Shown here: positions 3,117-10,900 of the stretch, piece after piece
Layout: each line of letters starts with the position of its first letter
Numbering within the stretch: the first letter of the stretch is position 1
Source: Piromyces finnis finn
Lineage: Eukaryota; Fungi; Neocallimastigomycota
Assembly: GCA_002104945.1 (NCBI GenBank)
Contig: MCFH01000048.1
Span: 372,001-436,000 of the forward strand
Direction: 5' to 3'
DNA: 64,000 nucleotides
Translations under genes and position numbers: made by a program
Notes under the pieces: model-generated
What the model was told of the DNA's origin: nothing
Seen by the model: only the letters and a program-made list of their open reading frames with translations
The model's database searches: none

Positions 3117-3946
3117 TATGGACCGTCAAGGGCCGACTTTGAGGATAATTAATGATCCTTCAATTTTCTCAGGAAGAAGATAAGAACTAGATAGTTCTTG
3201 ATCAGTGTAAAACTAGAGACTCAAATAATGATACAATTGTTGCAAAAGGAAAACTTTGCAACATTAAATAAAGAAAATTTGCAAGGTGTTCAAAAGCAAT
3301 AACGAATTCTAGCACGTTAGCCAAAATTCGGATTTTAACGAAGCAACTAAGATATATATGTTAACAAGAGGAATACATCCAAAAAATGTGTGAACATTTA
3401 ACTGTAGTTAATTCAAACCCCTCTCAGTTAGAGGGTCTTTATTCCGATGTCCTTAGTATTGAAAATCTTATAAAGAGAAATGACATCAATGAATACTACA
3501 TGACGCATCAAAATCGAAGAAATTATAACCAAAATAATGCTATGGATGTAGATTATATATAGAGTCAGTTTAGGTAAAGGTTAATTACTACCCTCATCAT
3601 AGAAGTAATTATACTGAAAATAAAACAAATCACGATAAGGTTAAGAAGGAAGTTTGCTTTACTTGTGGAAAGGCTGGTCACTTTCAATTGTCCAAACCAA
3701 AAGAAACCAAAAAATGTAAAATTAATAAGAGATGCTAGTTTCTCAAGTATTTCAATTACAAGAATTAGAAAAAAGATAATAATTCCAAGAGAACTTCCAA
3801 CATGTTCGAAATTCATAAAAGTGAAAAAAAAAATATTATCTATTTCTATATCAAGACAAATGATATCGATGTGGTCAAGGTTAAGATACTTATTGAATCT
3901 GGTTCCGATCTCAATTTTATCCACCCTGAATTTGCACGAATAAACC
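3117..3946 (+). pseudogene. Ty3/gypsy gag-protease remnant, 5' part (element G1)
   Basis: Zinc knuckle CFTCGKAGHF (about 3655) and protease ILIESGSDLNFIHPEFARIN, cut at about 3946 by the integrase-less element. Confidence 0.75.
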
Positions 3947-3987
3947 AAGATATTAAGATATTTCTCTTAATAATCCGGAAAATTTTA

Positions 3988-4011
3988 AAAAACTAGAAAA
4001 AACTAGTTTTT
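3988..4011 (+). repeat. Left arm of perfect 24-bp inverted repeat (candidate primer-binding site)
   Basis: AAAAACTAGAAAAAACTAGTTTTT is the exact reverse complement of 10371-10394. Confidence 0.85.
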
Positions 4012-4362
4012 ATTACTAAAATAATTCCGATACCTTAAAACTATTTTATTAAGGATAGTCAGGCAAAGTGTAAGACCTGTACCAAATAACTTGAGTCAAA
4101 GCAACTATCAAGGAGAAGTAAATCCTATCAATCAAATTATCAAACGGCTCAATCTTAGGCAAAGTGTAAGACCTACAGAAGTTTAATAGAAAAACCAACT
4201 AAACTAAATAATTGAATAAGGATAATTAAAATTTCGAAAAACAAATTGAACATACAGGCCGAAGACGAAGAATCATCGGATTCCATATTTCATATATCAA
4301 GAAGAAAGTCATTTAATACTTCAAAACGAACTTATCTATTCTACGACTACCGACTCCAAGAA

Positions 4363-7300
4363 ATGAGTGAAACGGAAGCTAAAGGAAAACAAGCCATGAA
4401 GGATAACAAGACTGCAAGCGATGAATCAGTCAAGACGTCCAGAATTCCACAAGCCATGGAAATAGAAAAGACAGAACGAACAAGTACATCAAGTATGTCT
4501 GGAGTAAATGAATATTTAAATAAACTCCCAGATGATATTATCAATGTTAAGACTTTAGAAACAGAGCTAAAAAACACTTATGGTGGAAATGCTCAAATTC
4601 CAAATTATAATCCCGAAAATAATGGGGCTACCCTATTAGCCTCAATGGATAACATCTATAAAGAATTAAATAATAAAAATAATGAAACAAGGGTTGAAAT
4701 GCAAACAATGATGAGTAACTTTATGGAGCAAATTCAAGCTCAGTTCATGAATCTTACTGCCACCCTTAACGCAACGCTTCAAACCTCAATCTCTGAACAA
4801 AAGAAATAGATAGAACATATTAAAGTCAATATGGCCAATAAAGCGGATAATGTTCAAGTACAAAACTTAGCAAATACTATAGATAATAATACCGTAAAAC
4901 CTACAGAACTTAATTCAGTAGTTAATGAAGTAAGACAGGAACTCAGACAAAACCAATTGAATACTGCAAAATCTAGTGACTTATTACCCCTAGAAAACGG
5001 GCTTACTCAACAACAAGCAGTTAATGAAGATAGTAATCAAGAGATTACTAAATTAACCAAAAGATTATCACTCATCGAAAAAGAAATTGAAAATATCACC
5101 CAACAGACCGTTGATAGCAACGTCTATACAGAAAACCTCACTACCATCATCAAGAATGAAATGGCTGAAAAATTACAAGCCACTAGGGCTGACTCAAAAC
5201 AAGCTATTCAAAAGCTCCAAGAGCAATTAATTACCACCTATCATATTAATGGTAAAAATGAGGATCAGTTCAATAAGAACATGAATACCTTTCGCGAGAA
5301 ATTAGAAAATCATGCGGTGCTTCAAACCCAATTACAAGAAAGGATCAAAACGTTAGAAACTGAACTAATAAATTCAGAAAATAATACAAATATTGAAGCT
5401 AAACTAACAACATTAAGAAAATTATACGAAGATCTACTTGACAAATATGAAAGTCTCCAGGAATCGACCAAGGATGAATGCGTTAAGCAATGCCTTAGGG
5501 AGATCACAATTATCAAGAAGAAACTTAATGAAGTTGGTCATCTCGAAATTGATAACATTCAAGATGAATATAAACATTTATTCCATAGTAATTCTAAAAC
5601 GAAGAAACTATTTAATGCTACTATTAATCAAGACACTCTAGAAGTCACAATTCAACCAAAAAATGAAACATGTAGAAAAATTATTAATACATTAATCAAC
5701 GAAAAATACTTAATGGATGCAAGCTTTAATAATCCAACTGAAGAAATATCTTTTAGTAATATCTCTAAATTCAGAAGCAAATCGTTCATTGGACACTCAA
5801 CTCTCGATGATAGAGAGGAAGAACAAGATAAAAGGCTCAACAAGAAACTTGAGGAGCAAGAAAACATCTTTAATAAGAAAATTGAAGACCTTAAGAATAA
5901 CTCCCATAATTCTTATATGGCTTCATCATCCCATTCCTCAAATAATAAAGACGATTTAACAACTAAATTTAACGCTGGTTTTAGAAGCGAAGAGGCTAAA
6001 CAAAATTATTTCGATGTTAAATTTCATCGTACCAAGGTTTACAACATTCCGGAAGAAGAAAATAGAAAGAAATTTAAAAAACTTATGCAAGAAACCAAAC
6101 CTGACTTCAGTTCAGGATCTAAGAGCGAACAGTATTATCATTATAAAACACATCCTAGAATTTACAACTCGAAGGTAAAACCAGTTGTTCCCTTTCGCCC
6201 AGTGGAATTTCAAGACTTACCCCTTGAGATTCAGCAGAATGTATCAGGGTTCAGGACTTTATTTAACATTCCGGCGCCAAGGTACAAGAACAAGCATAGT
6301 GGCTATGAATTCTTATCAAGTCTCAAAGCGTATCTACAAGCTTACTGCCCTAGAATAAACGAGATGCAAATTTGCGACGCCATTATTGCGAGGGGAGGTA
6401 AGGAAGTCAAACAATGGTTCGAAAACACATACAAGACCAAGATTGATAATAAGGATTTAGCCTGGAATGAATCAACCACCTGGCAGAAATTAAATAATTT
6501 TATCTACCAATTCGAAAACGAATTTTGTGAACTTTCGCTACAGGAACAAGAAAATAAATGGAAATCTCTAAAAATAAATACTCTTAACATAGAAAATTTA
6601 GAACTCCTTATAGAAGAAATCGAAAAAATTGGTAATAATATTAATAAGTCTTACTTTAGCAGATTCACTAAATTATCAAGAACTTTACCAGCTAACTTCG
6701 CTGAGAAATGCTTAGAAAAGTTACCTAAGCTACCAATACGAGATCCAAGAGAAGATTTCAACGAACAGAATGAAGAAAACGAAGAGATATATAAAGACTT
6801 TATTGAAATCATATTTAAAACAATAGCAGAAATAGAAGGTAACAAAAGTATGAAGGAAGATTTAAAAACATTTGTTAATAATTACAAAGATACACCTAAC
6901 AAATCAAAAATAAAACCACAGTCGAAATATTCGAATATACATAGCGACAAATGGAATAAAAAACATAAAGAAACAAAGATAAATGCGAATAAAGGGAGGC
7001 CAACCTCTAATTACAACATTAAAAAGAGCATATTAGATAGTAACATAAAAGAATATCAAAAGAAAAGGTTTACTCAAAAGTTTATACATAATACAATAGA
7101 ATCAATTAAAAACCTAAAGTATCTCAACAATCCACGATTTGGAGGCCGAATGCATTATAATAAGGCCGTAGTCATAAATAATAAATATATGGCAAAATAC
7201 GCTATAGTATTGCTCGACTCTGGCTCAGCAGGCAACTGCATAGGAGAAAATATAGTTAACAACCTAAATGTCAAGAAATATTCCAATAACATCACCCATA

Positions 7301-10237: not shown

Positions 10238-10342
10238 AATTCAATTAATTTTTAATATTAGTTAATAATATTTTAATAACCTTAATAATTTTATTAGTAA
10301 TAACATTTAAATATTAATTTATAGCTAAATTCTATATTTTTA

Positions 10343-10394
10343 TATAAATACATGTAATATGTATTAATTGAAAAACTAGTTTTTTCTAGTTTTT
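10343..10394 (+). promoter_or_regulatory. TATAAATACATGTAA promoter motif followed by right arm of inverted repeat (candidate transcript 5' end)
   Basis: TATA at 10343 and IR arm at 10371-10394; the same layout occurs at 49009-49061. Confidence 0.6.
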
Positions 10395-10626
10395 AACATT
10401 AGTCTCTAATATTTTACATAAAATAAAAATTTTTAATATTAGTTATAATTCTCATTGTAATCAAAACACTTTGAGGATAAAAGACTAATTTAATTAAACA
10501 AGTTTTTTAACATTATTAATATAAAAACCAAATAATAAATAAAAATATATTTAAAACATTAATTCTATTAAACGTTTATAACAAATTTAATATTAAAGTG
10601 TAAATAAATAGCAACAAACCAATTTA

Positions 10627-10900
10627 ACAAGATTAACTCTCAAATATTGCTGAATCTTTCAAGGTTTCCGGTTTGGGAAATCATTCAATTATATTCACTT
10701 AGAAATACTGAAGCTGATATCATTCTTGCTTTACCTTGGATAGAAAAACATTGTCCTATGTACTAGGACGATGAAGATGGACAATCGTCTTGTAGTGATC
10801 CTGACTCTCTCAATTATGATGACCTCTTACTGTGACTCCAGTAACAATGAAAAAATCATGAACATTAGAGGCCATTAAACTTCCGTAAGAACCATTAGTA
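10627..10900 (+). pseudogene. Ty3/gypsy protease remnant, 3' part (continuation of G1)
   Basis: Reads (K)I(K)LSNIAESFKVSGLG then EADIILALPWIEKHCP, continuing the protease interrupted at 3946. Confidence 0.7.

Follow-up and report, generated by a model that had tools for sequence, protein, structure and literature searches.

A Fungal Family of Reverse-Transcribing Elements with a Coiled-Coil Tail at the Position of Integrase

We analyzed a window of 64,000 nucleotides (nt) from the anaerobic gut fungus Piromyces finnis finn (Neocallimastigomycota; GenBank assembly GCA_002104945.1, contig MCFH01000048.1, positions 372,001 to 436,000 of the forward strand), and all coordinates below count from the first letter of this window. 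It is very AT-rich and holds nested, decayed copia and gypsy elements, among which lie four copies, A to D (Table 1), of a family of reverse-transcribing elements with no recognizable integrase. Copy A holds a frame that runs from the ATG at 4363 to the stop at 10235-10237 (148 codons, 1 stop codon, 1535 codons, and 273 codons, or 1,957 in all), with an in-frame stop and one frameshift as its lesions. Its domain order is coiled coils, capsid-like region, basic linker, protease (PR), reverse transcriptase (RT), RNase H with an insert, acidic linker, and coiled-coil tail, and it is 98% identical to a P. finnis protein record across 53% of the query. An initial annotation, made from the sequence letters, had proposed here an open reading frame (ORF) of ~1,960 amino acids (aa) with this content, which agrees with the frame, with Pfam matches for RT and RNase H, and with moderate lines of evidence for the capsid; in place of its bounds of 3941..10630, the ends are best set at 3946 and 10628. 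Contigs of run X1 are identical to copy A over 3441-6219, 6211-8944, and 9042-10669, and a single run X1 contig covers 48300-50145 of copy B, in each case with 0 differences. These contigs carry both the copy A lesions and the permuted copy B junction, and assembly error as their cause was rejected; run X1 is perhaps the source data of this assembly and is not independent confirmation.

Pfam detected no integrase, recombinase, or zinc knuckle in copies A and B and no integrase in 12 family proteins, and a custom integrase hidden Markov model (HMM) matched 0 of 15 family proteins versus 274 other sequences. No tyrosine recombinase was found in the frames of copies A and B, and none of the eight family sequences tested has a CCHC or HHCC motif, as initially annotated for the recombinase and the CCHC knuckle; a CCHC-like knuckle near 3660 belongs to the interrupted host gypsy element. 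When compared by HHalign with a 12-sequence chromovirus Pol profile, the family shows an alignment that opens at the pre-RT motif and goes no further than the last RNase H motif. The tail showed no integrase match at the sequence level, scoring 1.5% on its own against the Pol profile, and it gave no usable Atlas match. A hidden overlapping gene is not supported, as all 17 ORFs of at least 70 aa in other frames of A and B are without a Pfam match. The tail had been described as an acidic linker and a coiled coil ending in KKRRL; it is present and runs 19 residues beyond that motif. Across the family, tails fall into three types that cannot be aligned with one another (HHalign 0.1-0.4%), two of the three subfamilies having basic motifs in theirs. 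The claim that integrase loss is a property of the family is supported by the Pfam, HMM, and HHalign results, but the conserved tail, which had been cited for it, is kept within the A/B subfamily only.

Copy B is an independent copy with the same tail, as had been stated for 44727-48903. It is 75.6% identical to copy A along 4.5 kb, begins and ends mid-ORF, and is short of ~1.08 kb, and an 838-nt spacer without an ORF (48904-49741) stands between its tail and the start of the same ORF. This order implies a unit of ~6.8 kb with no room for another gene, in line with the ~6.8-kb size suggested initially. Family copies are scattered and single-copy, with protein identities of 43-87% and ends that fall mid-ORF or mid-spacer. 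Relatives occur elsewhere in P. finnis (P0332), in Neocallimastix lanati (P0319), in Neocallimastix sp. 'constans' (P0330), and among metagenome proteins (P0002, P0044, P0045, P0064, P0163, P0164, P0196, and P0198), and those that extend beyond RNase H (P0002, P0044, P0064, P0196, and P0330) all terminate in coiled coils. The nearest outside sequence is P0234, a PR-RT protein from metagenomes that trees place as sister of the family with 98-99 support; its sequence is cut off where RNase H begins, and its contigs reach 6.3 kb. Three run X1 contigs of single-copy depth, one of them perhaps copy B, link the RNase H end to tail sequence. A metagenome scan led from 255 pattern matches to 3 loci, all ordinary integrase-bearing gypsy and none of the family; scans of viral contigs with family queries gave no relative, and a search of genome contigs gave one distant RT (34%).

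Synonymous divergence between copies A and B is near saturation (proportion of synonymous differences [pS], 0.63-0.88 in most parts and 0.39 in the RNase H insert), and the ratio of nonsynonymous to synonymous rates (dN/dS) is 0.05 to 0.11 in capsid, protease, and tail (Table 1; tail dS, 1.75). The RTs are 91% identical in amino acids at saturated synonymous sites, with a ratio of nonsynonymous to synonymous differences (pN/pS) of 0.07, compared with 0.20-0.25 in the N-terminal region. Judged from these ratios, the lineage appears to have long replicated in integrase-free form under purifying selection, and we consider it very probable that an integrase-free lineage has been under long selection in gut fungi.

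Table 1. Features of copies A to D in the window (dN/dS, copy A versus copy B; pLDDT, predicted local distance difference test)
Feature	Position	Strand	Evidence or remark
Copy A, near-complete unit	3946..10628	+	6,683 bp; sits in protease gene of ordinary gypsy element
Downstream arm of inverted repeat, candidate self-priming site	3987..4010	+	24-nt reverse complement of 10371-10394
N-terminal coiled-coil region	4363..5949	+	Long helices; low-confidence model, mean pLDDT 48; in-frame stop 4807-4809
Small helix-hairpin-helix module	near 5548-5730	+	Aligns with Neocallimastix P0319
Gag/capsid-like helical region	6085..6870	+	Atlas features, model matches, dN/dS 0.07
Basic linker at nucleocapsid position	6871..7140	+	24% K+R, without zinc knuckle
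Aspartic protease	7135..7500	+	Motif LLDSGS; dN/dS 0.05 across 7222-7500
RT and connection	7999..8844	+	LDLRNAY, YLDD; Pfam RVT_1 E 1.7e-27
RNase H	8845..9445	+	Acidic catalytic motifs kept; Pfam RT_RNaseH in two stretches, both models; frameshift near 9415
RNase H insert, family-specific	8905-9141	+	Gap versus chromovirus profile
Acidic linker and coiled-coil tail, integrase position	9452..10237	+	dN/dS 0.11, no integrase match
Purine run, weak polypurine tract candidate	10162..10174	+	One of three purine runs of at least 13 nt in copy A
TATAAATA, candidate TATA promoter	10343..10350	+	Kept in copy B at 49009
Upstream arm of inverted repeat	10371..10394	+	At predicted RNA 5' end
Copy C, decayed capsid-to-protease fragment	11806..13118	+	tblastn 43-64% identity
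Copy D, decayed N-terminal to capsid fragment	28769..30996	-	tblastn 44-50% identity
Copy B, permuted: capsid-PR-RT-RNase H-tail, spacer, ORF start	44731..50358	+	BLAST; host frame runs on
Structured spacer closed by 18-nt inverted repeat	49030..49500	+	Folding z -5.55, arms paired

The protease motif was read from the sequence and is unscored by Pfam. The capsid identity is likely, given three moderate lines: Atlas features (Retrotrans_gag, 0.93), a structural model, and a BFVD row. Residues ~100-195 of the model resemble the capsids of murine leukemia virus, Arc, Rous sarcoma virus, PNMA2, and HERV-K (Z 5.2-6.1; 9 of the top 34 VIA rows); a Foldseek search of the model against the PDB returned nothing at E 0.001, and the capsid-protease sequence had no PDB match. 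The N-terminal region has no family match and no distinctive fold, its model matching generic helical bundles only. An RNase H insert of 79-130 aa is present in 5 of the 5 members examined. Synonymous conservation over the insert and its border (8788-9157) is 0.68-0.75 versus 0.55 overall, possibly from a cis element or a recent exchange between lineages, and the purine run of Table 1 falls where codon conservation is highest (0.82). The 33 codons upstream of the ATG (4264-4362; 49643-49741 in copy B) are open in frame and 52% identical as protein (pN/pS, 0.56), possibly a non-ATG upstream start or a conserved leader. There is no hydrophobic stretch of transmembrane length (maximum Kyte-Doolittle value, 1.56), so an envelope protein is unlikely.

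Copies A and B each lie within other elements. Across the copy A insertion the host gypsy frame reads FARIN on the left and KI..SNIAESFKVSGLG on the right, and in an empty-site contig 3939 is separated from 10635 by 13 letters, as many as the host retains at copy A, so host DNA was not lost there. The junction repeat at copy A is imperfect (8-9 nt), and its homeology is suggestive only when compared with shuffles (p 0.02 left and 0.065 right). GCTTTT stands on both sides of copy B (44725 and 50359), where the host frame continues through the site. The two ends of copy A share no long direct repeat, and this copy is without ~130 nt of spacer present in copy B. The reported absence of paired long terminal repeats (LTRs) and of a standard target site duplication therefore holds as far as long repeats go but passes over these short ones. 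Entry through host repair, also suggested initially, agrees with the junctions, which resemble repair capture in their empty site and short repeats; the variable internal ends and short repeats would fit break capture by end joining, the route proposed for endogenous caulimovirids (PMC10377300; papers identified by PMC number are cited throughout from excerpts).

The window also contains an LTR pair at 37745-44076, with a related LTR at 58078-58884. The two 789-bp LTRs of the pair are 100% identical and have TG..CA ends; a 6-bp duplication flanks the pair, which encloses 4.7 kb of tandem repeats that are AT-rich and have no ORF. This is a very young non-autonomous LTR element and illustrates integrase-type insertion in this genome. 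An exact 191-bp tandem duplication (2613-2990) lies immediately 5' of the host gypsy element.

The spacers of both copies hold a candidate TATA box, 35 nt upstream of the shared core of a repeat arm that begins 28-35 nt later. The inverted repeat is 24 nt long in copy A and 18 nt in copy B, where the second arm (49451-49468) lies 389 nt downstream of the first, before the ORF start; an 18-nt repeat arose by chance in 1 of 300 shuffles and in 0 of 21 AT-rich windows. Folding z values for two control stretches were +1.42 and -1.74 (compare Table 1). No tRNA-Met primer site was found within 2 mismatches in A or B; the four matches with 3 mismatches lie inside coding parts of A/B, and the 27 seen in the window versus 21 expected correspond to chance. 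TGG is absent from the spacers of A and B. Self-priming in Tf1, Tj1, and the Tf1/sushi group uses a primer site that can pair with the 5' end of the same RNA (PMC4600332, PMC6317226). The TATA box and inverted repeat suggest Tf1-like self-priming, an arrangement that agrees with the trees described below. Under this reading, the spacer would be a single LTR-like unit, copy B a one-LTR circle or tandem junction, and copy A a unit opened or trimmed within the spacer. Alternatively, the inverted repeat could close an extended leader hairpin that controls translation, as in caulimoviruses.

Among RT structures, the family profile scored 217 bits with Ty3 and 108 bits with the next chain, 8r0s ('Enzymatic polyprotein'), which we take to be cauliflower mosaic virus RT. 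The protease family profile retrieved gypsy proteases (best E 9e-6), led by a cluster containing a Piromyces sp. E2 protein, with caulimovirids absent from the top 6. A phylogeny of RT and RNase H had been suggested initially as a check. As references we used RTs found in viral contigs (73 of caulimovirid type and 9 of retrovirus type), recognized by primer motif, size, and clustering rather than by name, together with 297 other RTs. FastTree with 385 rows placed the family inside a 98-supported group of 70 rows that are mostly integrase-bearing and Tf2-like, and in a 40-row tree of RT plus RNase H it nested with chromovirus-type rows at 93 and 90. Over five trees, nesting in chromovirus-type rows was recovered three times and a union with caulimovirids never. 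The family also had no convincing match among 810 ORFs of 74 caulimovirid-type loci (best E 0.0012, with a coiled-coil tail profile). Chromovirus-type Ty3/gypsy descent is therefore likely, though not certain because of the long stem and skewed composition of the family. The Caulimoviridae layout that had been proposed stands as PR-RT-RNase H without integrase, but the kinship looks like convergence, with RT, RNase H, and protease nearer to chromovirus-type Ty3/gypsy.

We propose, with a confidence a little short of even, that the family is chromovirus derived, integrase free, and self-primed, replicates from unintegrated DNA, and reaches chromosomes by host repair capture only. The RNA would start ~30 nt past the TATA box in the spacer and run one full round of the unit, with terminal redundancy at its end; its 5' end would pair with the complementary arm ~400 nt downstream and, once cut by RNase H, would prime DNA synthesis as in Tf1. 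The protease would free the capsid, RT would make double-stranded DNA inside the particle, and a one-spacer circle would be the next template. The tail may, at a guess, stand in for integrase in nuclear delivery or tethering.

Several observations weigh against this proposal. The copy A contigs have depths of 189-194, compared with 186 in the contig that covers copy C; this single-copy depth implies no amplified episome of copy A in the sequenced sample; no end-to-start joint was found in 15 of 54 joints, and the episome evidence comes from assembled contigs of one DNA sample. The order of copy B is also given by tandem integrase-independent Tf1 insertions (PMC11042837), and these data show no sign of the episomal state inferred in the initial annotation. 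The family is left without resolution at the base of an IQ-TREE phylogeny of RT only (53 of the FastTree rows) and in a quick tree of a reduced set that dropped 8 rows (P0234, P0277, one retrovirus row, L070, P0037, and three family rows), while a careful tree of the reduced set nests it with modest support (83/86 and 87/78). For a clade with caulimovirids, the approximately unbiased (AU) test gives p 0.142 in the 40-row set, short of rejection, and the family stem is 1.8-2.0 changes per site, with AT-biased composition. The capsid model, at pLDDT 54, is a weak one, and the viral protein that it matches best is a coat protein of caulimovirus type (BFVD top row, E 0.047). A spacer free of TGG arises in 16% of shuffles, and self-priming is read from two copies, which show no compensatory change. 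The metagenome relatives were judged from proteins alone, and a separate integrase gene could lie nearby there.

The same integrase-free chromovirus derivative could be a chromosomal resident whose cDNA recombines into existing copies with no self-sustaining episome, in a Tf2-like manner, through Rad52 single-strand annealing and tandems sharing one LTR-like spacer. Integrase-less Tf1 inserts mainly as single-LTR-separated tandems (PMC11042837), recombination accounts for most Tf2 insertions (PMC7175516), and copy B shows the tail-spacer-start order, with no excess depth. However, the four window copies are separate, diverged, and placed in unrelated elements rather than arrayed, and the single-copy depth of copy A implies that it has no near-identical siblings; we consider a chromosomal resident rather unlikely. 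Improbable, in our judgment, is a true fungal relative of Caulimoviridae, with one integrase loss in a shared ancestor and the movement protein added later in plants. Such kinship would account for the shared gene order and size class, the AU test leaves the clade standing, and the top 30 BFVD rows include 4 with named coat proteins of plant viruses, of which at least three presumably belong to caulimovirids. One review allows for a lineage of this kind (PMC10377300), but none of the five trees recovers it, RT and protease scores favor gypsy, and tRNA-Met primer sites in the spacers, a CCHC knuckle, and a convincing match to caulimovirid-type ORFs are all lacking.

The short direct repeats flanking both insertions (6 bp at copy B) and a genome rich in integrase-bearing elements would suit an LTR element that is semi-autonomous and relies on integrase or recombinase supplied by a different element or by a second segment. 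Copy B ends mid-ORF and copy A mid-spacer, however, so these are not fixed integrase substrates, and paired LTRs are lacking even though an ordinary TG..CA pair with a duplication exists in the window; we find borrowing distinctly improbable. That the copies derive from a host gene or gene family domesticated from gypsy Gag-Pol is very improbable indeed: strong purifying selection would be expected of it, but all four window copies are broken or truncated and lie inside other mobile elements, one of them permuted.

Chromoviruses of the Tf1/sushi group (Metaviridae) share with the family the Gag-PR-RT-RNase H order in one frame (with moderate support for the capsid), the closest RT, RNase H, and protease, and the lack of a tRNA primer site together with a candidate self-priming repeat. 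In contrast to them, the family is without integrase or chromodomain, has a coiled-coil tail, a long coiled-coil N terminus, and the RNase H insert, sits on a very long branch, and shows no paired LTRs in the two copies seen. It thus departs from Metaviridae in the DDE integrase after RNase H and in paired TG..CA LTRs with a fixed target duplication. Integrase-independent Tf1/Tf2 in Schizosaccharomyces pombe show chromovirus insertion without integrase and one-LTR tandems (PMC11042837), but those elements still encode integrase, whereas the family has replaced it in at least two fungal genera. Caulimoviridae and endogenous caulimovirids share PR-RT-RNase H without integrase, a unit near 7 kb, and fragmented or permuted genomic copies; the family differs in its fungal host and in having no detected movement protein, tRNA-Met site, or CCHC knuckle. 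Pfam matched no 30K movement protein in the frames of copies A and B, and no ORF space is left for one. DIRS/Ngaro elements share RT-RNase H without a DDE integrase and an inverted repeat near the ends, but no tyrosine recombinase was found in the family, which has the protease that DIRS elements lack (PMC12440569); the trees were built without DIRS RTs. Hepadnaviridae and nackednaviruses are reverse transcribing, without integrase and without protease (PMC12440569), and are set apart by description from the family, whose RT is Ty3-like. HEART elements, also reverse transcribing, are likened to it by description only, and from Belpaoviridae it differs in being without integrase and paired LTRs.

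According to the excerpted sources, integrase is lacking only in Caulimoviridae, Hepadnaviridae, nackednaviruses, and DIRS (PMC12440569), and within Ortervirales plant Caulimoviridae alone are described without it (PMC10377300, PMC12440569); the excerpt of PMC13308828 has no mention of 'fung'. We found no published description of the family, in a search that left out Repbase entries, supplements, and subscription papers, which may hold a prior record. On its sequence features, the family appears unusual and distinct at about the family level.

Elsewhere in the window, a cassette at 19357-21782 resembles those of circular Rep-encoding single-stranded DNA (CRESS) viruses, with capsid-like ORFs (+, 19357-20478) facing a 339-aa Rep (-, 20763-21782) that has geminivirus-type Pfam matches. 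No relative was confirmed in viral contigs, and no gut-fungal host record was found in a literature search or in the excerpt of PMC9615429. The region 22598-27672 carries another Rep/helicase-like gene, which is broken (-), together with a capsid-like gene (+, 24153-25052) and ~2.6 kb more of + strand ORFs with repeated immunoglobulin-like or fiber-like units (Big_9 E 1.6e-5; no PHROG). If all of this is a single unit, its length is exceptional for a CRESS virus.

We put at about even the chance that the family represents either a second independent origin of pararetroviruses, as an episomal, particle-forming, self-priming chromovirus that exchanged integrase for a coiled-coil protein and would merit an Ortervirales family of its own, or a non-plant sister of Caulimoviridae. 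A long-lived integrase-free lineage in fungi would mean either two separate transitions of this type or a sister group of the caulimovirids in fungi, and both outcomes bear on the open origin of Caulimoviridae. The family would also be a natural, obligate case of integrase-independent replication, so far described in mutants and as a side pathway. For rumen fungi that can be cultured, it would be a candidate DNA virus or episomal vector.

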